This document shows, one piece after another, positions 4,790-49,508 of a stretch of DNA of 64,000 bases (its first letter is position 1; every line of letters begins with the position of its first letter). Where the stretch lies: positions 8,617 to 72,616 of the forward strand of contig CALFXR010000065.1 of NCBI GenBank assembly GCA_937958475.1, given 5' to 3'. Both the position numbers and the translations under genes were made by a program. Under the pieces are notes generated by a model. The model had not been told where the DNA came from. It ran no database searches and saw nothing but the letters and a program-made list of their open reading frames with translations. Source of the DNA: an uncultured Mesorhizobium sp. GTDB taxonomy: Bacteria > Pseudomonadota > Alphaproteobacteria > Rhizobiales > Rhizobiaceae.

Positions 4790-6235
4790 CTACTGAACGT
4801 AGATCTCGCCGCCGTTCAGTTCGCTGGTGACATCATAGAACTCGTTCGCCGGCATGCCGCCCTTGTGGACCGAGATCCTGTCGCCGATCCTGACGCTCAC
4901 CGTCTCGCGCTCGCCCTCGATGCTGAGCACGGCAAGCGAGGTCTCGTTGCCGCCGCCGTCGACCTTGTAGAGTTCGACCAGCATACCGGCGTTGTTGTAG
5001 AAGGTCACCGACGCGGGGTCTCCCGGATTGAGGAACTGGCCGACCTTGCCGAAACCCCCGTCGACCTCTTCCTTGAAGGTGTTCAGGCCTTCTCCGGTTT
5101 CCGTCACCGCGGTGTCGATGCCGTCCCGGACCGGCTCGACGGTCTCGTAGAGCACGAAGGTGGTGCCGGCCACGATGCCGACGGTCGTCACGCCGACGGC
5201 ACCGCCGATCATGACCTTGGCGGTCTTGGAAAGCCCCTTCTTGGCGGCCTTGGCCGCCGGCACGGTCACGGCGGGCACCGCCGCCTTCAAGGCGGGGGCG
5301 GCTGGGAGCTGGCGGACAGCCTTCACCGCCGTTTTCTGCACGCCGCCGATCTTGGTCATCGGCGGCTTCTTCGGCTTGGGCGGAGCCGCGCGGGCTACGC
5401 CGCCGAGGTCGTCGCCCAGGGACGCCGCCTTCCGGTTCAGGGCCTCGAGTTCGTCGATGCCGATGAACTGCTCCATGTAGATGTCGTTCTTCGGCTTGAT
5501 GATGTCATTGGCGTTGGCGTAGTTGGTGCGCGGCGTCGGATCGACATAGCGCGGTGCGTTGTCCAGGGCCTCGCGGTTCAGCTGCTCCAGCAGCTCTTGG
5601 CCGCCATAATGGGCGTTCGGATCGATTTCGGCGTTGCGCTTGAGCAGTTCCGACACGTCGTCGTACTGGCCGCCGCCGCGGTCGGCGAGGTTGTCGGCGT
5701 TTCGCCGCAGCAGTTCGTTGTAGTCGACATACTGCCCGGCCTGGTCGAGATTGCGCGGCGCGCCATCCCCGGCGGCGCCGAACTGCTTGGCGACAGCGTC
5801 GATGTCATCATAGCCGCTGAAAGCCGGCGCCTTGGGCGCCCCCGCTTTGTCGCCGAGCTGCTTCGCCAGGACGTCGATGTCGTCGTAGCCGCTGAAGCTG
5901 GGAGCCTTCGGTGGGTTGGCGCCGCGCACGGCGGCCTCGCCGATGTCGTCGAAGAGATTGTCGACGGGCGGCACTGCCCGGCCGGCGGCGCCGACGCCGC
6001 CCTGGACGATGTCGTCCGCCACGCCGTCCAGCTGGCGGCCGCCCTTGACCGCGCCCTGGACCGCGTCGTCGATGACGTTGTCGAGCCGCTTGCCGGCCTT
6101 GATGCCGCCCTCGATGACGTCGTCGGTGATGCCCCTGATGGCCTTGGAGATGCCACCCGTCTGCGCCTGCGCACCGGTGGCGAGCAGCACGGTCAGGACG
6201 ACGGCATGCGCCGTCGATGCGAGCAGGCGATGCAT
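4790..6235 (-). CDS. exported hypothetical protein (481 aa): signal peptide, internal repeats, late TM helix, C-terminal VHL-beta-like module
   Basis: Met 35 of ORF 4790..6337 gives MHRLLASTAHAVVLTVLLATGAQAQ. Repeats present: DDVIEGG/DDAVQGA/DDIVQGG and PKAP[SA]FSGYDDID x2. Hydrophobic helix VMIGGAVGVTTVGIVAGTTFVLY. The last 74 aa (ASVTFYNNAGMLVELYKVDGGGNE...) match the module found in the neighbouring genes. Confidence 0.85.
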   Translation of the reverse strand: MHRLLASTAHAVVLTVLLATGAQAQTGGISKAIRGITDDVIEGGIKAGKRLDNVIDDAVQGAVKGGRQLDGVADDIVQGGVGAAGRAVPPVDNLFDDIGEAAVRGANPPKAPSFSGYDDIDVLAKQLGDKAGAPKAPAFSGYDDIDAVAKQFGAAGDGAPRNLDQAGQYVDYNELLRRNADNLADRGGGQYDDVSELLKRNAEIDPNAHYGGQELLEQLNREALDNAPRYVDPTPRTNYANANDIIKPKNDIYMEQFIGIDELEALNRKAASLGDDLGGVARAAPPKPKKPPMTKIGGVQKTAVKAVRQLPAAPALKAAVPAVTVPAAKAAKKGLSKTAKVMIGGAVGVTTVGIVAGTTFVLYETVEPVRDGIDTAVTETGEGLNTFKEEVDGGFGKVGQFLNPGDPASVTFYNNAGMLVELYKVDGGGNETSLAVLSIEGERETVSVRIGDRISVHKGGMPANEFYDVTSELNGGEIYVQ

Positions 6236-6267
6236 CTTGATACCCTCGCTCTTCGAGATCTGCGGCG

Positions 6268-7752
6268 TCATAGCGGCGCCCCCGCGAACGTGACCCGCTG
6301 GTCGGCCTCTTCGTTCGGCACGAAGCCGCCCATCCACTGGTCGTCCTGGGCAAGTCGCCAGGCCTGGCCGACCTGGATCGGCTGGACCACCTGGAAGCCC
6401 GGATTGATCGTCATCACCCAGAGCGGTGCGCCGCCGTCCATCGGGTCGACGAAGACGTCGACCGGGGCTTCGGACACGTTCTGGAGGATGACGCGGACCA
6501 TGCCCGCCGGCAGCTGCTGCTGCACACGCGGCGCGTTGGGGTCCAGGACGACGACGTCGGCTTCCTCCTCGGCGGCGGGCTCGGCCGCCAGTTCGCCCTC
6601 CGCCGGTGGAAGCAGCTCGTCCTGCGTTGCCTCCGCCTCGTCCGGAGGCGCCGGGAGTTCGGTTTCAGCGGTGGCGGCGGCTTCATCGGCAGGCGGCAGG
6701 AGTTGGCCCTCGGCCGGAACGGCGGCATCGGCGGCAGCCTCTTCCTCCGCCGGCAGCAACTCCTCCTGAGGCGCACTCGCCTCGTCGGCGGCGGGGAGGA
6801 GTTCGGTCTCGGCGGGCGCCGCGGCTTCGTCCGTCGCCGGCAGCAACTCGGCTTCGGCCGGAACGGCGGCATCGGCAACCGCCTCCCCCTCCGCCGGCAG
6901 CAACTCCTCTTGGGCGCTGGCCTCGTCGGCGGCGGGGAGGAGTTCGGTCTCGGCGGGCGCGGCGGCTTCGTCCGTCGCCGGCAGCAACTCGGCTTCGGCC
7001 GGCACGGCGGCATCTGCGGCCGCGCCTTCCGTTTCCAAGGGAACGACTGGCTCACCTTCCGCGAGAGGAAGTTCGCTCTCGGCGCTTCCACTCTCCGTCG
7101 GCTGCTCGGCCGTCTCCTGTGGCTCGCCCTCGATAACCTGACCTTCGAGCGGTTGCTCCGCGATCAGGGCCTCGCCCTCAGTGACCTGTCCCTCGAGCGG
7201 CTGCTCCTCGATCACCTGCGGCTCGCCTTCGACAACCTGGCCCTCGGCCGGTTGTTCGGACGTCTCCTGCGGGTCGCCTTCGACAACTTGACCTTCGAGC
7301 GGCTGCTCCGCGATCTGTGGCTCGCCCTCCGTGGCCTGTCCCTCGAGCGGCTGATCGATCACCTGCGGCTCGCCTTCGACAGCCTGGCCGTCGGCCGGCT
7401 GTTCGGACGTCATCTGCGGGTCGCCCTCGGTAACCTGACCTTCGAGCGGCTGCTCGACGATCTGTGGCTCACCTTCGACGACCTGGCCTTCAGCCGGCTG
7501 CTCGGACGTCAACTGGGCTTCGCCTTCGGCCGCTTGCCCGTCAGCCGTCGCGGGATCGACCGCGGCGTTCGGATCGGGCGCGACGCTGCCGTCCTGCTGC
7601 ACGACCGCCTCGCCCTGTGCGGCCTCCTGGGCGGCAAGCGGGGCGACGCCGACGAGAAGGGCGGCGACGGCGACGGACGATGCCATCGACCGGATGCGCG
7701 CCGCGAAAACGGAACGTGCGGTCATGGGGATCATTCCTGCTGGCTGGCTCAT
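6268..7752 (-). CDS. exported hyper-acidic Glu/Pro/Gln repeat protein (494 aa) with C-terminal VHL-beta-like module
   Basis: The last 494 aa of ORF 6268..9960. The ATG at 7752-7750 overlaps the TGA of the upstream gene (ATGA). Signal peptide ...SSVAVAALLVGVAPLAAQE (alternative starts at Met7/Met10). It has 16-aa EGQxxEGEPQxxEQPL repeats and 46-aa repeats with E-L-L-P-A motifs. The C-terminus reads VRVILQNVSEAPVDVFVDPMDGGAPLWVMTINPGFQ...GQAWRL. Confidence 0.85.
   Translation of the reverse strand: MSQPAGMIPMTARSVFAARIRSMASSVAVAALLVGVAPLAAQEAAQGEAVVQQDGSVAPDPNAAVDPATADGQAAEGEAQLTSEQPAEGQVVEGEPQIVEQPLEGQVTEGDPQMTSEQPADGQAVEGEPQVIDQPLEGQATEGEPQIAEQPLEGQVVEGDPQETSEQPAEGQVVEGEPQVIEEQPLEGQVTEGEALIAEQPLEGQVIEGEPQETAEQPTESGSAESELPLAEGEPVVPLETEGAAADAAVPAEAELLPATDEAAAPAETELLPAADEASAQEELLPAEGEAVADAAVPAEAELLPATDEAAAPAETELLPAADEASAPQEELLPAEEEAAADAAVPAEGQLLPPADEAAATAETELPAPPDEAEATQDELLPPAEGELAAEPAAEEEADVVVLDPNAPRVQQQLPAGMVRVILQNVSEAPVDVFVDPMDGGAPLWVMTINPGFQVVQPIQVGQAWRLAQDDQWMGGFVPNEEADQRVTFAGAPL
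6583..7026 (-). repeat. coding tandem repeat, 138-bp / 46-aa unit (AADAAVPAEAELLPATDEAAAPAETELLPAADEASA(P)QEELLPAE), about 3 units
   Basis: Near-identical DNA blocks lie 138 bp apart (for example around 6789 and 6927). The protein carries eight LLP[AP] motifs in aa 243-390. Confidence 0.8.
7087..7539 (-). repeat. coding tandem repeat, about 16-aa unit (EGQvvEGEPQxxEQPL), roughly 9 units
   Basis: aa 72-222 of the 494-aa protein. The periodicity is visible in both the protein and the DNA. Confidence 0.8.
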
Positions 7753-10700
7753 TTCACGTCCCCGCAGACCGGGTAATTGTAGGCCATGACGATATCGGCG
7801 ATGCCGGTGGGGTCGAGCGACGACCACGGGAAGTCGGACGCGGGGTTCTGCGCCTCGGCGCCGGACATCATGGTCTCGACTATGGCGTTGATGCGCTCGT
7901 CCGAGATGGAGCCGACAACCTTGTTTCGGATCATCTCCTTCAGCGCGTCCTTCATCTTGACTTGCGACGCGATCTTGGTGCCGCCCCAGATGATCGAAGT
8001 CAGCGCCGTCCCGATCGCGGCGTCGACGATCAGTTCCTTGCCGATCGTCTTGAAGCCCGCCTTCAGGGCTTCCTTCACGCTCGCCTTGAGGCCTGCCTTG
8101 AAGGCTTCCTTCGCCCCCATCTTGGCGGCGACCGTGCCGGCCGTCTTGCCGGCGGTGCCGCCTGCCTTGGCGCCGGCGGTCGCGCCCGTCGAGCCGCCCG
8201 CGGTGACGACGGTCAGGGCGATGCTGCCCGCCGCGATGACCGGCGACAGCACCTGGTCGACGATCGCGCCGTCGCACGTCGCCTTGTCGATCGCGCAGCC
8301 GGCCCCGCAATTGTGGGGCAGCTTCGCCGGGCAGGCGTTCCAGCAGACCGGCCCGACGCCGGCGAAGCCCGCCTTGCAGCCGTCGTAGCACAGCCCGGCG
8401 TCGTTTACGGCGCCGGCGTCGCAGCTCATCAGGCTGGCCTCGCGCGTGTAGGTGTGCTTGGCGCAGAATATGCCGCCGTCGGTCATCGGCGCCGCGCAGC
8501 TCGGCGTGCACAGGTTGGTGATCACCGGCGCCTGCTCGTAACCCGCCTTGCAGGTCTCGTAGACGATGGTGTCGCCGTTGGCGGTGACGCAGTTGTCGCC
8601 GTGCGCCTCGCGGCAACGCCGGCGCGCGCCGTCGAGGCCGGTCTCTCCGGATGCCTCGTAGGTGCCGAAGGAGAAGAACCAGGCCAGCCCGTCGCCGACC
8701 GCCTTGGCGGCCTCCCCGGCGTTGACCGGGTATTCGTCGCGCTTGTAGGGCGCGGGCTTGAAGCAGGTCAGGCCGTCGTCGCGGTATCCCGCGGGGCAGG
8801 TGGCCTGCCTGCAGACGAAGAAGTCGCAGACGTAGCCCGGCCGGGCATCCGGCCAGCACAGGCCCGCGGTGTCCTCCGAGAAGCCTGGCTCGCAGTTGCG
8901 CGGCACGCTGCCGACGCCGCGGCCATAGCTGTCCTTCCAGCAGTACTGCGGCCCATCGGCCAGCGCCGACTGCTTGGCCTGTTCGGCGGCGAAGTCGGTG
9001 ATGATCTTGTCGATGCTGATGTTGGTCATCGCCAGTATCTGGTCGTCCGTCGGGTTCCACGGCAGGTCCACCGTCTGGCCGTTGGCGTCGCCGACGAAGT
9101 AGGGCATGTCCTGGCCGAGCTTCTCCTCGGTGTCGCCCTTGTAGAACCAGAGCACCGATTTCGGCAGGGCGCGCGTCGAGATCGAGTGCCCGGCCGGGAT
9201 CTTGACCAGCGTGACGTGTTGCTCGCTCTCGTTGACGACCGTCACCGCGGCGACCTCCTCGGAATAGTTGGAGAAGGTGACCTCGACGCTTCCGGGACCC
9301 ATCTGCGCCACGGCGGCTTCGTTCGGCCGGTACGGGATGTTGACGGCCGCGCCGTCGGCGTCCGGTACCACGAAGGCCTCGCCGACCGGTTCGTCGGCGA
9401 ACTGCTTCAGGAACCAGATGGTCGAGCCCGGCAGGAAATTGGCGTGCCGGCTCATGTTGCCGGTGCCTTCGCCCACGTCGAGGGCGAACAGGAGCGCCCG
9501 CTTGCCGTCCTTGTCGGCGGTGACGACGTCGAGCGGCTCGCCGCTGTCGTTCATCAGGCGGACCTTGACGCTGCCGGGGCCGGCCTGCTCGGCCTGGGTG
9601 GCGTTGAGCGGCAGGTCGACGCCGTAGAAGCCGTCCAGCACGGTGTAGTCGTCGCTGACACGCCTGTCGGTGCCGGCGCGCACGAAGGAGAGCACGGTGC
9701 CGGGAATGCCATGGCCCTGGACGCCCTTCGCACCCGATTCGATGTCCATCATGTCGACCCGCGATCCGTCGGGACGGTTGACCTGCACCGTGATGGGGAA
9801 TGGCAGGAGATTGGCGAAAAGCACCATGCTGCTGCCGGGACCCGACTGTTCGGCGACGACTGCGCCACGCGGGTCGAACGGAATCGAGACCGTCTCGGGG
9901 GCCGACGCCACCTTGTACGAATAGCGCAGCGCCTCGCTGGTGTCGGTGCGGTAGAACCACAGCTCCGTTCCCGGCCGGGCCCGCTGGGTGACGCTCTGCC
10001 CCGCCGGGATGCGCGCCAGCGGCACCGTCTTGCCGTCGTCGACAAGGGCCGCGATCACGTCGACCTCGAGCGTATTGGCGAAGGACAGCTCGACGCTGCC
10101 CTTGCCGTTCTGGACCCTCAGGATCCTGGCGACCGCCGGATCGGGGGCGGCGGCCTTGGCCGCCTCGATGCTGACCACCTCGCCGTCGAGGCCGGTCACG
10201 GCATAGGGGCCGCTGACCAGTTCGCCGCCGTCCTTGCGGTAGAAGTAGAGGCTCGCCTGCGGCAGGACGCGCTGCCTGACCGTCTGCCCGGCGGGAACGG
10301 CGAAGAGAGGATGCGCGGTCTTCGCTTCGTCCACCACCGCGGCGACGATATCGTGCTCGGTCGTGTTGACGAACTCCGCCTCGACGCTGCCTTCGCCCCG
10401 CTGGCGCTGCTGCATCTGGGAGAGCTCAGGCGCGGCGGCGCGTTGTTCGATGCTGACCACCTCACCGTCCAGGCCCGTCACGGCATAGGGGCCGCTGACC
10501 AGCTCGCCGCCGTCCTTGCGGTAGAAATAGAGGCTCGCCTGCGGCAGGACGCGCTGCCTGACCGTCTGCCCCGCGGCAACGGCGAAGAGCGGATGCGCGG
10601 TCTTCGCTTCGTCCACCACCGCGGCGACCACATCGTCCTGCGTGGTGTTGACGAACTCGGCTTCGACGCTGCCTTCGCCCTGCTGGCGCTGCTGCATCTC

Positions 10701-11702
10701 GGAGAGCGCAGCCGCGGCGGCGCGCTGCTCGATGGTGACCACCTCGCCGTCGAGCCCCGTCACGGCGTAGGGTCCGTTGACGACCTTCGTGCCGTTTTCG
10801 GCATAGAACCACAATTCCGCGCCCGGCAGCACGCGTTCCCTGGCCGATGCGCCGGCGGCGATGTCGAACAAGGGGACGGCGTCCTGGCCGTCGGTGACGG
10901 TCACCGTCACGACGTCGGCCGTCGTGTTGACGAACTCGGCCTCGATGCTGCCTTCGCCCTGCTGGCGCTGCCGTTGCGACAGGACGGGGTCGGCAGCGAC
11001 CGACGCCTGCGGGATCGTGACGACGTCGCCGTCTGCGCCGGCGACCGTGTAGGGTTCGCCGACCGCCGTGTTCGTGGCGACGTCGTAGAACCTGAGCGTC
11101 GTGCCCGGCAGGACGCGCTGCGCCGCCGTCTCGCCGGCCTTCACGCCGAACAGCGCATAGGCCTTGTCGGCGTCGTCGAAGACCACCGCGGCGACGAGGG
11201 CGGAAGTGGTGTTGGAGAAGCTGAGTTCGACGCTGCCCGAGCCGGACTGCTGCGCCCTGATCCGGGCCAGCGGCGAACTGTCGTCCTGCGCGGCGGGCGG
11301 AGCCTGCGCCTGCTGGGAATAGGGTACGCTCACGGCTTCTCCGGGCAGGCCGGCGACGGGGTAGACGTCGCCGAGCCAGTCGCCGTCCTGGGCGAAGCCG
11401 AGCGACACGGTGCCGGCGGGCGCGATGACGTCGATCGACTCGCCGGCCGAGAGCTCAGCCAGATCCTGCTGGTCCTCATTCGCGTCGATGGCGATGACGG
11501 TGACCGTGCCGGCGGAACCGTTCGAAACGGAGACGACGGTGTCGGTATCGGCGACACGGCACACGAACGGCGCATAGGCCGGCACCGGCATGCGGCTCAT
11601 CTGCGGGGCGCGAGGCAGTGCGGTTGCGGTGTCGACCAGGAGATTGAGGGACAGGAATACGGAAAGTATGCAGCGGAATGCCGCCGCGAATGCCCGCGCC
11701 AT
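7749..11702 (-). CDS. large exported protein (1317 aa): nine tandem beta-sandwich modules, Cys-rich region, hydrophobic/Lys-Ala-rich segment, small C-terminal domain
   Basis: Full ORF. Signal peptide MARAFAAAFRCILSVFLSLNLLVDTATA. Repeated GSVEaeFvNTT...aG....RvLPg..LwFY......Y.V.G.DGevV.I modules. 21 Cys fall in aa 921-1143. Hydrophobic stretches at aa 1151-1170 and 1223-1241. Confidence 0.9.
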   Translation of the reverse strand: MARAFAAAFRCILSVFLSLNLLVDTATALPRAPQMSRMPVPAYAPFVCRVADTDTVVSVSNGSAGTVTVIAIDANEDQQDLAELSAGESIDVIAPAGTVSLGFAQDGDWLGDVYPVAGLPGEAVSVPYSQQAQAPPAAQDDSSPLARIRAQQSGSGSVELSFSNTTSALVAAVVFDDADKAYALFGVKAGETAAQRVLPGTTLRFYDVATNTAVGEPYTVAGADGDVVTIPQASVAADPVLSQRQRQQGEGSIEAEFVNTTADVVTVTVTDGQDAVPLFDIAAGASARERVLPGAELWFYAENGTKVVNGPYAVTGLDGEVVTIEQRAAAAALSEMQQRQQGEGSVEAEFVNTTQDDVVAAVVDEAKTAHPLFAVAAGQTVRQRVLPQASLYFYRKDGGELVSGPYAVTGLDGEVVSIEQRAAAPELSQMQQRQRGEGSVEAEFVNTTEHDIVAAVVDEAKTAHPLFAVPAGQTVRQRVLPQASLYFYRKDGGELVSGPYAVTGLDGEVVSIEAAKAAAPDPAVARILRVQNGKGSVELSFANTLEVDVIAALVDDGKTVPLARIPAGQSVTQRARPGTELWFYRTDTSEALRYSYKVASAPETVSIPFDPRGAVVAEQSGPGSSMVLFANLLPFPITVQVNRPDGSRVDMMDIESGAKGVQGHGIPGTVLSFVRAGTDRRVSDDYTVLDGFYGVDLPLNATQAEQAGPGSVKVRLMNDSGEPLDVVTADKDGKRALLFALDVGEGTGNMSRHANFLPGSTIWFLKQFADEPVGEAFVVPDADGAAVNIPYRPNEAAVAQMGPGSVEVTFSNYSEEVAAVTVVNESEQHVTLVKIPAGHSISTRALPKSVLWFYKGDTEEKLGQDMPYFVGDANGQTVDLPWNPTDDQILAMTNISIDKIITDFAAEQAKQSALADGPQYCWKDSYGRGVGSVPRNCEPGFSEDTAGLCWPDARPGYVCDFFVCRQATCPAGYRDDGLTCFKPAPYKRDEYPVNAGEAAKAVGDGLAWFFSFGTYEASGETGLDGARRRCREAHGDNCVTANGDTIVYETCKAGYEQAPVITNLCTPSCAAPMTDGGIFCAKHTYTREASLMSCDAGAVNDAGLCYDGCKAGFAGVGPVCWNACPAKLPHNCGAGCAIDKATCDGAIVDQVLSPVIAAGSIALTVVTAGGSTGATAGAKAGGTAGKTAGTVAAKMGAKEAFKAGLKASVKEALKAGFKTIGKELIVDAAIGTALTSIIWGGTKIASQVKMKDALKEMIRNKVVGSISDERINAIVETMMSGAEAQNPASDFPWSSLDPTGIADIVMAYNYPVCGDVK
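8274..8942 (-). other. Cys-rich region with repeated C-x2-G-[FY]-x(n)-C units (aa 921-1143 of the 1317-aa protein)
   Basis: NCEPGFSEDTAGLC, TCPAGYRDDGLTC, TCKAGYEQAPVITNLC, SCDAGAVNDAGLC, GCKAGFAGVGPVC. I counted 21 cysteines by hand. Confidence 0.7.
9057..11549 (-). repeat. nine tandem ~85-100 aa protein modules (aa 52-882 of the 1317-aa protein)
   Basis: Hand alignment of module starts: VVSVSNGS, VELSFSNTT, IEAEFVNTT, VEAEFVNTT x2, VELSFANTL, SMVLFANLL, VKVRLMNDS, VEVTFSNYS. Each is followed by a conserved G and an aromatic pair (LWFY/LYFY/IWFL). Confidence 0.8.
10140..10703 (-). repeat. near-identical tandem DNA duplication, 2 x 282 bp (modules 4 and 5)
   Basis: The sequence at 10196 onward (cacggcataggggccgctgaccag...) recurs at 10478 onward with only a few mismatches. 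The protein copies, aa 334-427 and 428-521, are almost identical. Confidence 0.85.
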
Positions 11703-12076
11703 GGATCTTACCAGTAGTTGAGCGTGTCCCTGCGCAGCGACCGTGAACGGGTTTCCGGCGCCTGTCCATGGGGGGCGGGGACTTTATTTACGCAACGTCA
11801 GCCCTCGGCCCCGCCGCTTGTCGCCGGGACGGACAACTCGGCGTGACCAGCGGAAGGCGCCAACGATCACGCTTGACGCAGCGGAACCGGCGGCTGTAGC
11901 CTTCGCGCGCGCATTTGTCCGGGACGGGATGATCGCGGCGGAAATTGCAGGCGAGTGCGAGGCCACGGGGCACGCGCGTTGCCTGGTGCTTCCGCGCTGA
12001 AACGGTACCGTCCTGCGGCACCGTCTGGGTGGGAACGACCTCCGCATCCATTGCGGTGGGACTTGGGGCAGGGGGA

Positions 12077-13315
12077 ATGCGCATGACTCGCGTCGTAGGT
12101 TTCCTGGTGCTGGTTCTGTCGGCGCTGGCCGCGGGGCTGCCGGCTCTGGCGCAGAGCGGAGGCGTCCAGCTGCGCCTCACCAACCAGATGACCGAAAAGG
12201 TCGACTATTACGTGGTACCGCCTGGCGGCAAGCCGACCTTCGCCGGCTCGGTCGAAGCCGGGGCGGTGGTCGATGTCGAATCGAAGGCGGGCCAGGGATA
12301 TGTCTTCGCGGTCAACCGCGTACCCTTCCAGAAGTACACGACGCGCTCGGAGGTGTTCCAGGGCCTGACGCTCGCCCCACAGGGCCAGCAGAAGCCGCCG
12401 GTGGTCGCCAACTCCCGCCAGAAGCCTGCGTCGGGGGGCAAGACCGTCGATGCCGCGGCGGCCGACAGCGGCGGCGGCGGATCGGCGCCATCGAATGACG
12501 GACTGATATGGATGTTCTCCCAGTTCCAGGACGACAGGGGGATCGATACTTCGGTGCTCTACTTCTCGGTACCGGAGACCGACAACGTGCAGTTTTCCGC
12601 CGCATGCAGCGCGCAGGACGCGACGCCGCGAGTCATCCTGTCGGCGGATGTCTCGCGCCTGAAGAACGGGGCGGCGACCAGTGTGCGTTTCCTCGCCTCC
12701 GGCTTCGATGCCACCATCCGGGGCAAGGTACGGCTCAGCGAAAGCGGCGAGGGCCAGGACGGCATCGACATGGCGGTCGGCGCCGACGACCCGCTGTGGC
12801 AGGCGTTCGCCGCCCGCAACGCCGTGAACTACAGCGTGCAGGGACAGGCCCCGCTGCGGCTGCCGCTGTCCGGCGTGCAGGAGCCGCTCGGCAACTTCCT
12901 CCGCGACTGCGCGCAGTTCGCCGGCGGCGGCGGCGGCGGCAGCGGCGTGGCCGGCGACGCGACGCAGCTGTTCTCCGGCGGCACGAGCGGCGGTTCGGCG
13001 AACACGGCCGGCGCGACGGCCGATTCCTGCGCGGCGCTCGACGGCGTCGTCTCGAAGAATGGCGGCAAGAAGGTCGCGGTGGAGTTCGTCAACCGCACCG
13101 ACGAGTACCGCGTTCTCATGTGGATCGATTTCGAGGGTACGCCGGTCGAGTACACGCAGCTCGAAGGGGGCCAGGCGTACCAAGTCGAGACCAGTTCCAC
13201 GCATCCCTGGATGGTCACCGACGGCCCGGGCAACTGCATCGAGAAATTCATGCCGAAGCCCGGCCAGAGGCAGATCCTGATTTCCAGGAAGAGCCCCGGA
13301 TTCGGCGACGAGTAG
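12077..13315 (+). CDS. exported protein (412 aa) with C-terminal von Hippel-Lindau beta-domain-like module
   Basis: Met 45 of ORF 11945..13315 gives the signal peptide MRMTRVVGFLVLVLSALAAGLPALAQS, preceded by a G-rich SD. An N-terminal module (LRLTNQMTEKVDYYVVPPGGKP...) is followed by a Gly-rich linker. aa 335-382 (VEFVNRTDEYRVLMWIDFEGTPVEYTQLEGGQAYQVETSSTHPWMVTD) align without gaps to pVHL 74-121. Confidence 0.9.
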   Translation: MRMTRVVGFLVLVLSALAAGLPALAQSGGVQLRLTNQMTEKVDYYVVPPGGKPTFAGSVEAGAVVDVESKAGQGYVFAVNRVPFQKYTTRSEVFQGLTLAPQGQQKPPVVANSRQKPASGGKTVDAAAADSGGGGSAPSNDGLIWMFSQFQDDRGIDTSVLYFSVPETDNVQFSAACSAQDATPRVILSADVSRLKNGAATSVRFLASGFDATIRGKVRLSESGEGQDGIDMAVGADDPLWQAFAARNAVNYSVQGQAPLRLPLSGVQEPLGNFLRDCAQFAGGGGGGSGVAGDATQLFSGGTSGGSANTAGATADSCAALDGVVSKNGGKKVAVEFVNRTDEYRVLMWIDFEGTPVEYTQLEGGQAYQVETSSTHPWMVTDGPGNCIEKFMPKPGQRQILISRKSPGFGDE

Positions 13316-13361: not shown

Positions 13362-14024
13362 ATGAGACGTCTGCCGTTGATCGCGGCCTGCAGCGCGGTA
13401 GGCCTGCTGGTGCTCGCCAGCCAGGCCGCCGCGCAGTCGAGAGAGTTCTTCTGCGGCGAAGACTATGTCGTGAAGCTGAAGGTCATCGACAAGAAGACCA
13501 TCTCGGCCGGGCCGATCGCGGGGCGGACGCTGGCGCTGATGCAGGTTCCGGGAAAGACGATGGTCTATGCGAACGGCAAGACCTCGCTGGAGATCGGTTC
13601 CGACCAGAAGCGGATCGCGGTCCGCGTCGTCGGCGAGGAGCCCCTCGTCTGCGTCTTCCCGGCCCCCGAGGGTACGGCCGAGCGCAGCGCAGACACCGAC
13701 GCCGGTCAGCCGGCCGGCGAAAAGCCGGTCGCGATCAAGCCGGTCGTGAAGAACCCCACGACGGCGACCGCCGATCCCGCTTCGAAGGGCTTCGCCGCGA
13801 AGTCCTGGGGCGGCGTCGTCCGATCCGGCCCCGGGATGGAATTCAAGCAGGTCGCAAGCCTCAAGGAAGGCGAAAATATCACGGTGATCGAGGACGCCGG
13901 CGTCGAGATGAACGGCTACCGCTGGTACAAGATCCGCTTCGGCGGCAACAGGACCGGCTTCCAGTGGGGCGGCATCCTCTGCCCGATCGGCAAGACGGTC
14001 GCCGGGGCGTTCCAGAGCTGCTAG
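13362..14024 (+). CDS. exported protein (220 aa) with C-terminal bacterial SH3-like domain
   Basis: Signal peptide MRRLPLIAACSAVGLLVLASQAAAQ. The C-terminus (AKSWGGVVRSGPGMEFKQVASLKEGENITVIEDAGVEMNGYRWYKIRF) matches the SH3b pattern (ALRSGPs...v..l..G..v.v......gW.kV). It starts 46 nt after the preceding gene on the same strand. Confidence 0.8.
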   Translation: MRRLPLIAACSAVGLLVLASQAAAQSREFFCGEDYVVKLKVIDKKTISAGPIAGRTLALMQVPGKTMVYANGKTSLEIGSDQKRIAVRVVGEEPLVCVFPAPEGTAERSADTDAGQPAGEKPVAIKPVVKNPTTATADPASKGFAAKSWGGVVRSGPGMEFKQVASLKEGENITVIEDAGVEMNGYRWYKIRFGGNRTGFQWGGILCPIGKTVAGAFQSC

Positions 14025-14249: not shown

Positions 14250-14325
<76 letters not shown>

Positions 14326-46462: not shown

Positions 46463-46556
46463 GCGCGCGGCGCCGCGCGGGCGGCGATGGTGAAGGAACC
46501 GCCCGCGGCGGCTTCGCGTTGAAGAGGGGTTCCACTCTAACGCGAGGCAGCCGCCC

Positions 46557-47429
46557 ATGCTCATCCGTCTCGGCTACGAGATCGCCATCGACTGTCCCCA
46601 GCGGACGCCGCTGATCTCGGTGCTGGAAATCCACCCCGAACGGCAGAAAGACATCCAGCGGCAGACGCGCGTCCTGACCTCGCCGTCGGTTCCGAGCACC
46701 GTCTACACCGACCGCTACGGAAACCTGTGCCGGCGCTTCCTCGCACCGGCCGGCGGCCTGCGCATCCTCTACGACGCCGTCGTCGAGGACAGCGGCGCCA
46801 CCGACGAGATCAACAGGCTCGCCGGAGAGACCCCGGTCGACAATCTCCCCGACGACTGCCTCGGCTATCTGCTCGGCAGCCGCTACTGCGAGACAGACCA
46901 CCTGAGCAACCTGGCCTGGCAGCTGTTCGGCCATCTGCCGCCGGGCTGGGCGCGGGTCCAGGCGATCGTCGATTATGTCCATACCAGACTGTCGTTCGGA
47001 TACGGCTACGCCCGGTCCACGCGAACGGCGGCGCAGGCCCACGAGGAGCGAGTCGGGGTGTGCCGCGACTTCGCCCATCTGGCCATCGCCTTCTGCCGCT
47101 GCATGAACATCCCGGCCCGCTACGTGAACGGCTATCTCGGCGACATCGGCGTGCCCGCCGATCCGGCGCCGATGGATTTCTCGGCCTGGTTCGAGGCCTA
47201 TCTCGACGGCAAGTGGTATCCATTCGATGCAAGGCACAACAGGTCGCGCGTCGGCCGGGTCGTCATCGCCCGCGGCCGCGACGCCACCGACGTGCCGCTG
47301 CTGCACAGCTTTGGCCCGCACAGCCTGTCCACGTTCCGCGTCTGGACGTACGAGCAGAAAGAGGACGGCGACACCCTGCCGCCGCGCCACGGCATCGACC
47401 GCACGCTGACCGCCCAGATCCTCGCCTGA
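46557..47429 (+). CDS. transglutaminase-like cysteine peptidase family protein
   Basis: The transglutaminase core is present: Cys (RVGVCRDFAHLAIAFCRCMNIPARYVNGY) and the downstream W..FDARH. Confidence 0.85.
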   Translation: MLIRLGYEIAIDCPQRTPLISVLEIHPERQKDIQRQTRVLTSPSVPSTVYTDRYGNLCRRFLAPAGGLRILYDAVVEDSGATDEINRLAGETPVDNLPDDCLGYLLGSRYCETDHLSNLAWQLFGHLPPGWARVQAIVDYVHTRLSFGYGYARSTRTAAQAHEERVGVCRDFAHLAIAFCRCMNIPARYVNGYLGDIGVPADPAPMDFSAWFEAYLDGKWYPFDARHNRSRVGRVVIARGRDATDVPLLHSFGPHSLSTFRVWTYEQKEDGDTLPPRHGIDRTLTAQILA

Positions 47430-47456
47430 GACAAGGGCGGCCCGTCTTTCGAGTTG

Positions 47457-47492
47457 CATGGCGGAGAAAATAGGAATATTTTCTCCGCCATG
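47457..47492 (+). promoter_or_regulatory. perfect 16-bp inverted repeat with 4-nt loop (CATGGCGGAGAAAATA-ggaa-TATTTTCTCCGCCATG)
   Basis: Verified base by base. It lies 28 nt after the transglutaminase-like stop. The right arm contains the ATG (47490-47492) of the nuclease gene. It may act as a terminator, a translational occluder or a protein-binding site. Confidence 0.5.
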
Positions 47493-47945
47493 TTTCGTGA
47501 TATCCCTTTCGTCGCCTCGGCGTCGGCGGCCGCTCTCGCCGCAAGCCTTCTCGCCGCCGACCCCGCAGGCGGCGAGCGGCTGCTCGGCGGGCCCGTCGAA
47601 GCGCGGGTGATCTCGATCGTCGACGGCGACACGCTGCGTGCCGCAGCCTTCATCTGGCCCGGCCACGAAGTCAGCGTCAGCGTGCGCATTCGCGGCATCG
47701 ACGCGCCGGAGATGAAGGGCCGTTGCGAAGCCGAGCGGAGCGCCGCCGAGCGCGCCAGGTCTGCCCTCGAAGGCCTCGTCGGCCTCGGCCCGGTGCGGCT
47801 CCGCGACGTCGGCGGCGGCAAGTATTACGGCCGCGTGCTGGCCGACGTCGAGGCCGCCGACGGCACTGCGGTCGGCGCCGCTCTCCTCTCGCTCGATCTC
47901 GTGCGCCCCTATGGCGGCGGCCGCCGCGGATCCTGGTGCGGCTGA
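47490..47945 (+). CDS. thermonuclease (SNase-like) family exported protein
   Basis: MFRDIPFVASASAAALAASLLAA is the signal peptide. IVDGDTLR...VRIRGIDAPEMKG...ARSAL...YYGRVLADV is the SNase pattern. Confidence 0.8.
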   Translation: MFRDIPFVASASAAALAASLLAADPAGGERLLGGPVEARVISIVDGDTLRAAAFIWPGHEVSVSVRIRGIDAPEMKGRCEAERSAAERARSALEGLVGLGPVRLRDVGGGKYYGRVLADVEAADGTAVGAALLSLDLVRPYGGGRRGSWCG

Positions 47946-48206
47946 ACCGAACCGGGACGGGTCGATCGTTCCGTTTCGGCACGCGGCCGGCGCCACGTGC
48001 CGCCTCGTCGCTGCGATGGTGAACGAGCGGTAAACGCCGCTGCGGCCGCACCTCCAATTTTCTACCGCCCGTCAACCACGCTGCAGCGCCGCGTCCCACG
48101 AAATCAACCGCTTGCCGACTCCGGCCCGCGCTTTCCCGGTTCGCCCGCCGGTCCGGCCGGGATCGTGCATGAAGCTCTCCGAGAAGCTCGGCGGATGGAG
48201 GATTGG

Positions 48207-49508
48207 ATGGCGACGACCCGTTTCCGGCATTTCGGCCGCGACACCCGCGGCAACTTTGCCGTGATGACCGCGGCCATCGCCTCGGTGCTCGCGCTCGGCA
48301 TCGGCTACGGCGTCAACGTCGCCCAGATGACCAAGGTCCGCTCCAACCTCGTCAACGCGCTCGACGCCGCCGTCACATCGACGGCCCGCGACCTGACGAC
48401 CGGCAGGATTGCCGAGAAGGACGCGCACGCAAGCGTCGAGGCCTTCCTGATGGCAAACGGCAGCGCCGATTTCACGCGGCCGGGCACGCTCGCACTGGAA
48501 AACCTGGTGATCGACACGTCCGCGAGCACGGTCGCGGCGCGCGCCCATGTCGATGTCGACCTGCTCTTCCCCGTCTTCGCCACCGGCAATTCGCGACGCA
48601 TCGCGGTGGAATCGGCGGCGCTCTACTCCGACAAGCGGATCGAGGTGGCAATGATGCTCGACATCACCGGTTCGATGGCCGGGCAGAAGATCAAGGACCT
48701 GAAGACCGCGGCCCTTGCGGCGCTCGACGCCTTCCTCGCCGGCCAGGACCCGGCCAAGGCGCGCGTCCGCGTCGCCATCGTCCCCTATGCCGACGCCGTC
48801 AACACCGGCGCGCTTTCGAACGTCGTCCACGTCGAGAAAAGCTTCACCGCCGGCGAGCCGCCGAAGCTGGACGATCCCGTCGCCGCCGCCACCGCGCCGG
48901 ACAAATGTGCGACCGAGCGCAAGGGCGCCAACCAGTTCACCGATGCCAGCCCCTATACGGCCAAGGTCAACCGCGACTACCGCCTCGCCTTCTGCCCGTC
49001 GACGGCGCTGGCGCCGCTCTCGGCCGACCTTCCGGCGCTGAAGAAGGCGGTCGGCGCCTTCGCCGCCGACGGCTACACCGGCGGCCACACCGGTATCCAG
49101 TGGAGCTGGTACATGCTGTCGCCGAAATGGCGCGACGTGCTGCCGAAGGCGGCGGCGCCCGCCGACCACGACCCGAAGAAGGTCGCCAAGATCGCCATCC
49201 TGATGACGGACGGCGAGTTCAACACCGCCTTCGCCGGCGTCGCCAAGGGCAAGGACACGCGCAACCAGGCCGCCCTGTCGCGCAGCCACGCCGAGACGCT
49301 CTGCGCGGCGATGCGCAAGGACGGCATCGAGGTGTTCACGATTGGCTTCATGCTCAAGGAGGCCGGCGCCAAGGCCGTGATGAAGGCCTGCGCCTCGCCC
49401 GACAGCGGCTCGTCCACGCACTATTTCGAGACGAGTTCCGGCGCCGAGCTGACCGACGCCTTCCTGTCGATCGCCCGCAACGTCGAACGGCTGGCGGTGA
49501 CGAAGTAG
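48207..49508 (+). CDS. TadE/TadG-like N-terminal domain protein with vWA domain
   Basis: RDTRGNFAVMTAAIASVLALGIGYGVNVA is the pilus-assembly TadG-type N-terminus. The MIDAS-like motif MMLDITGSM is present, and MTDGEFN lies later. An alternative start is at 48195. Confidence 0.8.
   Translation: MATTRFRHFGRDTRGNFAVMTAAIASVLALGIGYGVNVAQMTKVRSNLVNALDAAVTSTARDLTTGRIAEKDAHASVEAFLMANGSADFTRPGTLALENLVIDTSASTVAARAHVDVDLLFPVFATGNSRRIAVESAALYSDKRIEVAMMLDITGSMAGQKIKDLKTAALAALDAFLAGQDPAKARVRVAIVPYADAVNTGALSNVVHVEKSFTAGEPPKLDDPVAAATAPDKCATERKGANQFTDASPYTAKVNRDYRLAFCPSTALAPLSADLPALKKAVGAFAADGYTGGHTGIQWSWYMLSPKWRDVLPKAAAPADHDPKKVAKIAILMTDGEFNTAFAGVAKGKDTRNQAALSRSHAETLCAAMRKDGIEVFTIGFMLKEAGAKAVMKACASPDSGSSTHYFETSSGAELTDAFLSIARNVERLAVTK

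Follow-up and report, generated by a model that had tools for sequence, protein, structure and literature searches.

The present analysis concerns a stretch of 64,000 nucleotides of DNA from an uncultured Mesorhizobium sp. (contig CALFXR010000065.1, positions 8,617 to 72,616 of the forward strand; the whole stretch is hereafter called the window), in which a gene on the plus strand at 12077..13315, stop codon included, codes for a three-module exported product. The C-terminal ~95 residues of this VHL-like protein truly belong to the VHL-beta family (PF01847), the family of the beta domain of human pVHL, and the residues that make up the core of the hydroxyproline (Hyp) site of pVHL are found both in the window protein and in most domain copies of its bacterial family. 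We consider it reasonably likely that the domain is a recognition module that would hold a ligand in a VHL-type cage and work in an assembly at the envelope or cell surface rather than in ubiquitylation. Residue numbers follow the 412-aa numbering (start at ATG 12077) of a preliminary description of this DNA, which had been made from the letters alone; related loci and proteins are cited by L and P numbers.

The VHL-beta homology, proposed in the preliminary description from an alignment made by hand, is borne out by searches with sequence, profile, and predicted fold. PF01847 is the sole Pfam family that matches the VHL-like protein; it scored 33.8 bits (E 3.6e-8) with the whole protein and 37.1 bits (E 3.3e-9) with the domain alone, against a gathering cut-off of 21, and its hidden Markov model (HMM) pairs positions 2-60 of 82 with aa 325-383. 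A phmmer search of PDB sequences with the single query reached pVHL at E ~0.01 and returned the same gapless alignment as that drawn by hand, in a register (query residue 11 opposite position 67 of chain 8qvu_F, which has 213 aa) that makes V335 equivalent to V74. The 48-residue segment quoted earlier is present in the protein, the string given there for pVHL 74-121 is that of the PDB pVHL chains aligned by phmmer, with the right numbering, and a recount of the gapless pairing gave the same 14 identities in 48 positions, with a BLOSUM62 score of 74. None of 200,000 shuffles attained either that score or 14 identities. When a profile built from 20 orthologous VHL-beta domains (A2) was run against PDB sequences, pVHL alone was matched, at E 7.6e-6 and over 59 gapless columns that correspond to pVHL 63-121.

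The predicted structure leads to the same family. The full-length AlphaFold2 (AF2) model has a mean predicted local distance difference test (pLDDT) score of 80 and consists of three well-predicted modules with two disordered linkers between them, and the domain-only model has seven strands, a pLDDT of 90.4, and a predicted template modelling (pTM) score of 0.81. In Foldseek searches of PDB with both models, the top 50 matches were all pVHL chains (E 6e-7 to 5e-6, probability 1.00, ~95 aligned columns, query-normalised TM 0.64-0.73, root-mean-square deviation 2.3-4 Å), so that the model is a seven-strand sandwich predicted to superpose on the pVHL beta domain. The VHL-beta-family domain spans aa 317-412 (13025..13312, plus strand), and the translation of 13028-13285 on the same strand, inside ORF (open reading frame) 11945-13315, is CAALDGVVSKNGGKKVAVEFVNRTDEYRVLMWIDFEGTPVEYTQLEGGQAYQVETSSTHPWMVTDGPGNCIEKFMPKPGQRQILIS. 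As the preliminary description noted, the protein ends 30 aa past D382, without an alpha domain or BC-box; these last residues form two beta strands and a PGFGDE tail, and the Pfam scan of the protein gave no match to the VHL C-terminal (alpha) domain. The VHL-like protein is not an orthologue of pVHL, the CRL2 substrate receptor, because it lacks the alpha domain, BC-box, and Cul2 box and because it is exported, carries a conserved Cys pair, and belongs to an alphaproteobacterial host.

The Hyp site of pVHL is formed by Trp88, Tyr98, His110 (through its backbone), Ser111, His115, and Trp117, among which Ser111 and His115 hydrogen-bond the hydroxyl of Hyp and Tyr98 hydrogen-bonds its carbonyl (PMC9528729). 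In the gapless alignments to pVHL the corresponding pocket codons of the window gene lie at 13121..13210 on the plus strand, and the five pocket residues map just as had been claimed: W349 (13121-13123), Y359 (13151-13153), H376 (13202-13204), and W378 (13208-13210) are identical to W88, Y98, H115, and W117, respectively, and T372 (13190-13192) takes the place of S111 with the hydroxyl kept. The site of pVHL is flanked by Phe91, Tyr112, Asn67, and Arg69 on one side and by Phe76, Ile109, Pro86, Pro99, Leu101, and Arg107 on the other (PMC9528729). Among the other residues of the site in the window protein, F337 (F76), F352 (F91), L362 (L101), and N328 (N67) are identical and V370 (I109) is a conservative replacement, while R107, H110, Y112, P99, and R69 are changed to Y368, E371, S373, T360, and G330, respectively. 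Based on this residue-by-residue mapping onto the pVHL site, the core of the Hyp site is kept and its peptide-specific periphery is not.

In the mode of action that we propose, the VHL-like protein is an exported, probably disulfide-stabilised protein of three modules whose C-terminal VHL-beta domain would do the binding. The aromatic cage W349/Y359/W378 and the hydrogen-bond pair T372/H376 would grip a proline-type ring, of either Hyp or Pro, and the ligand might be an extended peptide containing Hyp or Pro, or a similar small ligand, bound where pVHL binds hydroxyproline. The likeness of function to pVHL would probably be limited to the use of the same site for recognition. The protein is not a ubiquitin-ligase subunit, because the alpha domain and BC-box are absent, the predicted location is outside the cytoplasm, and the bacterial family is very large. 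The partners in this lineage would be a giant protein of multiple beta sandwiches, an acidic Pro-rich protein with Leu-Leu-Pro (LLP) repeats, and an SH3 protein, all encoded nearby; with conserved exported partners such as these, a role in cell-envelope or surface assembly, or in adhesion, would be indicated.

The conservation of the pocket was assessed in the best 186 representatives of the family, which are related in sequence and together contain 295 copies of the domain. The position of pVHL 88 is Trp in 95% of the copies, 98 is Tyr or Phe in 82%, 111 is Thr or Ser in 97%, 115 is His in 92%, and 117 is Trp in 93%, and all five positions are retained in 221 of the 295 (about 75%). The pentad is retained in the subfamily that has the disulfide and the DGPGNC motif and also in a Cys-less tandem-repeat subfamily. 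Moreover, the losses cluster: 33 copies have three or fewer pocket residues, compared with 16 expected under independent loss, and 41 have lost exactly one, compared with 89 expected. Such correlated loss is suggestive of function, within the limit set by the sequences being related to one another. Because so many of the copies keep all five residues and the losses cluster, the pocket looks functional, and these observations favour a functional site rather than a pure fold signature.

Several observations weigh against the recognition of a ligand by this site, including the hydroxylase searches described in the next paragraph. In an alignment (A1) of the 29 closest relatives, which are full-length or nearly so, C318, N339, G354, T372, and D382-G-P-G-N-C387 are invariant, and the pocket residues W349, Y359, and H376 are substituted in several relatives. 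The pocket reads M,F,T,T/E,W in P0020, P0022, and P0025, has lost a W to E in P0021 (L003), and reads W,M,T,H,F in P0035; that of the Mongoliimonas terrestris orthologue (L010) reads W,I,A,H,F. Since several close orthologues have a degenerate pocket, an intact pocket is evidently not essential within the long-form orthologous group, to which the window protein belongs. The residues altered in the window protein include the secondary HIF contacts R107, H110, Y112, and P99. In addition, W117 and F76 make up, with F119 and F136, an aromatic core in pVHL, and the N78S substitution destabilises pVHL, in which N78 has a structural role (PMC3688787); part of the pocket conservation may merely reflect the fold. 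The genomic context of the short form, which accounts for 77 of the 80 loci, adds no partner: all-versus-all clustering of ORFs within ±6 kb gave no conserved neighbour, none being common to more than ~10 loci except alternative frames of the gene itself, and the contexts of the stand-alone members (after lutABC, before LysE, near Amidoligase_2) give no functional hint.

One possibility, put forward in the preliminary description, is that the domain is a dedicated reader of peptide 4-hydroxyproline, with Hyp supplied either by a bacterial protein, such as the LLP-repeat neighbour, that is hydroxylated by a prolyl 4-hydroxylase (P4H) encoded elsewhere in the genome, or by Hyp-rich polymers of the environment or a host, such as collagen or the hydroxyproline-rich glycoproteins of plants and algae. 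The Thr at position 111 and the His at position 115, which retain both hydroxyl-binding residues of pVHL and are the best-conserved polar positions in the family (97% and 92%), would be in line with such a role, as would the tandem arrays, which reach 10 copies in P0049 and would suit polymeric ligands, and the acidic LLP or Leu-x-Ala-Pro repeats in all three linked partners, which resemble the acidic LxxLAP context of HIF. No writer was found in the DNA searched. The Pfam scan of ~45 ORFs, which covered the window except for short gaps and small ORFs at ~19.7-21.2, 26.0-27.4, 33.1-33.9, 49.5-50.8, and 53.3-54.2 kb, found no family of 2-oxoglutarate/Fe(II) oxygenases, in agreement with the earlier remark that the window has no prolyl hydroxylase gene. 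The scanned ORFs are housekeeping genes, which include those for a PfkB kinase, ABC transporter parts, a pyrophosphatase, a GNAT protein, LemA/TPM proteins, carbonic anhydrase, M3/M48/M50 peptidases, BipA, NAD-GDH, RsmB, PurH, LeuRS, PriA, and others. A phmmer search with the PHD2 catalytic domain gave no match (E<=10) when run against the 5,771 ORFs of at least 100 aa that the window and 81 loci (±10 kb) contain, which is a weak negative because collagen-type P4Hs could escape it, and no hydroxylase adjoins three stand-alone members. A cognate prolyl 4-hydroxylase was accordingly not found in the same system, in the window or in the related loci. Furthermore, the pocket is damaged in the orthologues of two of the three linked clusters, and known bacterial P4Hs are cytoplasmic, whereas the window protein is exported. 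A dedicated hydroxyproline reader therefore seems rather unlikely to us. Hyp binding as such is no more than plausible, because the closest full-length orthologues sometimes lose the pocket.

A bolder proposal, which we regard as doubtful, is that the proteins constitute a large and ancient bacterial family of exported readers of Pro or Hyp peptides, of which the pVHL pocket would be the eukaryotic offshoot, or that the family was acquired early from eukaryotes. In that case the domains would dock on the co-encoded LLP repeats, hydroxylated or not, or on Hyp-rich polymers of plants, algae, or animals. If this were true, the family would represent a new class of module for adhesion or recognition, one that reads with no writer linked to it.

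The pocket residues might instead be a signature of the fold, that is, a buried or semi-buried aromatic cluster in a generic structural, spacer, or adhesion module comparable with Ig or Fn3 domains. The place of W117 and F76 in the aromatic core of pVHL and the destabilising effect of N78S (PMC3688787) agree with this explanation, and so do the long tandem arrays, the pocket-less repeats of similar pattern in the giant neighbour, and the tolerance of pocket loss among the orthologues. The same orthologues, however, speak for the opposite conclusion, because those that lack W88, Y98, or H115 are well conserved elsewhere in the domain, so that these residues are not required for folding. Y98 in particular is dispensable for the fold, since modelled pVHL Y98H is virtually identical to the wild type (PMC3688787). 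The losses, moreover, are correlated and not independent, and a conserved Thr/His pair beside three aromatic residues is typical of a binding site, not of a core. We consequently think a purely structural module quite unlikely and return to a recognition module as the preferred explanation. As for chance or compositional similarity, or a recent transfer of eukaryotic VHL as a host-mimicking effector, the identity of just 29% over 48 residues and the modest phmmer E value could be taken in their favour, but both are extremely improbable and were ruled out by the agreement of the Pfam, profile-to-PDB, and fold searches, by the shuffles that never reached the observed score, and by the occurrence of the family in thousands of clusters and 141 genomes with Sec rather than effector signals.

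The gene itself offers two possible start codons within ORF 11945-13315, ATG 12077, which gives 412 aa, and ATG 12083, which gives 410 aa. A Shine-Dalgarno-like run, GGGGGA, directly abuts the former and lies ~7 nt ahead of the latter, and the database protein P0001, which is 100% identical to the VHL-like protein and carries a precomputed PF01847 label, has 410 aa. Because both the spacing of the GGGGGA run and the length of P0001 fit the second ATG, translation probably starts at 12083, in which case the residue numbering used here shifts by -2. Antisense frames over the gene are ordinary artefacts of high GC content (68.6% in the window). The protein is predicted to be exported via Sec, to be either periplasmic or secreted, as the preliminary description also held: a Sec-type signal peptide is visible at aa 1-26 (12077..12154, plus strand; MRMTRVVGFLVLVLSALAAGLPALA/QS), with cleavage after ALA, no lipobox cysteine, and a predicted N-terminal helix at aa 4-19. 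The D382-G-P-G-N-C387 loop (13220..13237, plus strand), invariant in all 29 orthologues of A1, contains C387, which probably pairs as a disulfide with the likewise invariant C318 (13028-13030), since the protein is exported.

The other two modules lie upstream on the same strand. The N-terminal module, a beta module of seven strands (aa 27-100, 12155..12376, QLRLTN..KVDYY), is predicted by AF2 with a pLDDT of ~90, and its profile (A3) matches the C-terminal module of the LLP-repeat proteins (independent E values 6e-8, 3e-9, and 8e-8) and the N-terminal repeats of orthologues of the giant protein. An hhalign comparison of this module (A3) with the VHL-like domain (A2) gave a probability of 25%. 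The middle domain (aa ~140-285, 12494..12931) is marked in A1 by the invariant residues W145, P166-E-T-D169, C177, C278, and W241 (W..PETDNVQ..C....C), and had no relative in searches of Pfam, NCBIfam, and PDB sequences. In BFVD, the full model has a weak match (E 1e-3, TM 0.55 on the target, 153 columns) in Sphingobium phage Lacusarx, to a protein named "Invasion associated locus B (IalB)", and another to a phage "putative adhesin". A Gly-rich linker at aa 286-316 (12932..13024) is predicted to be disordered, with a pLDDT <50 for aa 285-314, and joins the middle domain to the VHL-beta domain.

The long form of the gene is linked to genes for other exported proteins. A giant exported protein of 1317 aa (7749..11702, minus strand) contains no fewer than 8 repeats of ~95 aa (VEAEFVNTT...), along with a Cys-rich region and a hydrophobic C-terminal part rich in Gly and Ala; its repeats read GEGSVEAEFVNTT..., the Cys-rich block CWKDSYGRGVGSVPRNCEPGF..., and a long Gly/Ala/Lys-rich hydrophobic stretch is followed by a conserved tail, FPWSSLDPTGIADIV..PVCGDVK. 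Pfam gives nothing for it beyond a weak PLipase_C_C match of 29 bits, and orthologues occur in L003 and L010. The A2 profile finds in it eight weak, evenly spaced, in-register matches with a summed E of 5e-13 in a set of 13 proteins. The stop of this gene overlaps the ATG of the downstream gene (ATGA), which codes for the acidic Pro-rich LLP-repeat protein of 494 aa (6268..7752, minus strand), a protein that ends in a beta module common to the N-terminus of the VHL-like protein. The strand of this gene is ambiguous from the GC content at third codon positions (0.81 versus 0.85), and the minus strand is backed by a signal peptide and by the orthologues. Its repeats are built on a Leu-Leu-Pro core and read AELLPATDE, for example in AEAELLPATDE and PAETELLPAADE, while those of the orthologues read EPLLPDPAQPP in L010 (~6040-7524, plus strand) and QPLLDAPVDQA and LLPAP in L003 (14143-15426, minus strand). 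The versions differ in repeat sequence, but a core of Leu-Leu-Pro or Leu-x-Ala-Pro and the C-terminal beta module are constant, and a partner domain may recognise the LLP repeat as a short linear motif.

A further protein of 481 aa (4790..6235, minus strand) combines a signal peptide with a single transmembrane segment and ends in a small beta module; it has no Pfam or NCBIfam match, and membrane-anchored Pro-rich analogues occur in L010 and L003, the linked partners including one or two proteins of this kind. On the other side, 47 bp past the VHL-like gene, an exported SH3 protein of 220 aa is encoded at 13362..14024 (plus strand; PF08239 SH3_3, E 6.6e-7), and the SH3_3 gene is kept downstream of the VHL-like gene in L001, L002, and L003. 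No NCBIfam names were found for the five proteins of the cluster. The linkage of the long form to the giant and LLP-repeat proteins recurs in L002 (86% identity), L003 (44%), and Mongoliimonas L010 (31%), with gene order and orientation that differ among the three. Because the A3 and A2 profiles match modules across the VHL-like, LLP-repeat, and giant proteins, the cluster appears to encode exported proteins assembled from small beta sandwiches that are related to one another, of which one alone carries the VHL pocket. A tRNA-Ala (CGC) gene at 14250-14325 (minus strand), between the gene of the SH3 protein and a yggT/DUF167 pair, places the boundary of the cluster there. Farther away, downstream of purH, a transglutaminase-like gene, a 171-aa ORF, and a gene with a VWA domain (46494-49508, plus strand) are unrelated to the VHL-like gene. 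Among the stand-alone members, the gene in L082 and L086 is flanked on one side by a lutABC-like operon and on the other by a LysE exporter, and L085 has two VHL-beta genes 2 kb apart (5308-6069, 253 aa, and 8001-8372, 123 aa) on a 1.78-Mb contig, near Amidoligase_2.

The family is large. Against 1.84 billion representative proteins, the A2 profile matched 3,925 clusters at E<=1e-3, of which 899 reached E<=1e-10. Its commonest architecture is a stand-alone exported protein of ~123 aa, and others combine the middle domain with the VHL domain (~270-300 aa), follow the long form of the window, or consist of tandem arrays, as in P0049, with 2000 aa, ten VHL copies, and a long C-terminal membrane region. 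Fusions seen among P0147, P0160, and P0162 are SAM-SAM-TIR with three VHL domains, patatin phospholipase with VHL, and VHL with beta/gamma-crystallin. A high-ranking profile match, P0054, is an Fn3-repeat protein and was set aside as a likely repeat-driven false positive. In a pattern scan with one genome per GTDB species, relatives of the subfamily were present in 141 genomes, several of them of cultured environmental isolates, and the closest relative belongs to a Mesorhizobium metagenome-assembled genome (MAG), with 86% identity. All of the 80 retrieved loci come from Alphaproteobacteria, mainly Hyphomicrobiales and Rhodobacterales, or from unclassified Pseudomonadota MAGs. Two 94-aa Pandoravirus proteins in BFVD, S4W4E3 and S4VX01, match part of the full model (TM 0.51-0.63 on the target, ~94 columns) and may be VHL-beta-like sandwiches in giant viruses.

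Members of the family already bear public names, either "VHL beta domain-containing protein" in UniRef (e.g. Aurantimonas P0216 and Bradyrhizobium P0287) or, in JGI annotation, "VHL beta domain" and even "von Hippel-Lindau disease tumor suppressor protein", so that the existence of bacterial VHL-beta domains is catalogued knowledge. A member from Litorilituus, EMK97_00595, has been described in silico, with a "tumour suppressor" conclusion that is no evidence of function (PMC9002001), and full-text literature searches returned no work on the function of bacterial VHL domains, this in-silico paper being the only account. In view of the number of bacterial clusters, these labels, and that paper, the preliminary description went too far in calling the protein unexpected. 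What appears to be new is the family-wide conservation of the Hyp-site pentad and the conserved long-form cluster.

Exported bacterial proteins commonly carry the VHL-beta module, with the Hyp-site residues as its most conserved feature across very different architectures, a point not found in the literature searched. That literature discusses VHL only as the animal part of the PHD-HIF-VHL oxygen-sensing triad, and the full-text searches gave no functional study of a bacterial hydroxyproline-reading protein, though bacteria are known to have PHD-like hydroxylases. Should the pocket bind peptides with Hyp or Pro, an origin, whether bacterial or through ancient transfer, could be assigned to the recognition half of the animal oxygen-sensing switch; bacteria would have a new kind of surface recognition module, and its stable, disulfide-bonded single domains would provide scaffolds related to the target site of proteolysis-targeting chimeras (PROTACs). 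If it binds no such peptide, the family would be another beta-sandwich module. In this sense the pocket offers a testable lead, either for the origin of the PHD-HIF-VHL system or for bacterial surface recognition.

The window protein may be compared with three known systems. With the human and metazoan pVHL beta domain (PDB 1LM8, 1LQB, and 1VCB) it shares PF01847 and the seven-strand sandwich, and over pVHL 63-121 the two pair without gaps, with W88, Y98, H115, W117, F76, N78, F91, G93, L101, and N67 identical. Unlike pVHL, it has no alpha domain, BC-box, or Cul2 box and hence no Elongin or cullin partner; it is exported, has a probable disulfide, is fused to two unrelated N-terminal modules, and comes without HIF or PHD. 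The DGPGNC loop is likewise a feature of its own subfamily and not of pVHL. In the bacterial "VHL beta domain-containing proteins" the domain, the signal peptide, the C...DGPGNC disulfide subfamily, and the pocket pentad are as in the window protein; most of them, however, are stand-alone proteins of ~123 aa or consist of the middle and VHL domains, whereas the window protein adds an N-terminal beta module and its long form, unlike most relatives, shares a conserved cluster with the giant and LLP-repeat proteins. The Ig-like and prealbumin-like adhesin repeats of bacteria (Big, Fn3-like) are also small exported sandwiches that occur singly or in tandem in large surface proteins, and the 1317-aa neighbour behaves like proteins of this kind. 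The VHL-like domain, in contrast, has no significant Pfam match to the Big and Fn3 families and possesses a conserved aromatic/Thr/His site, which is absent from both.

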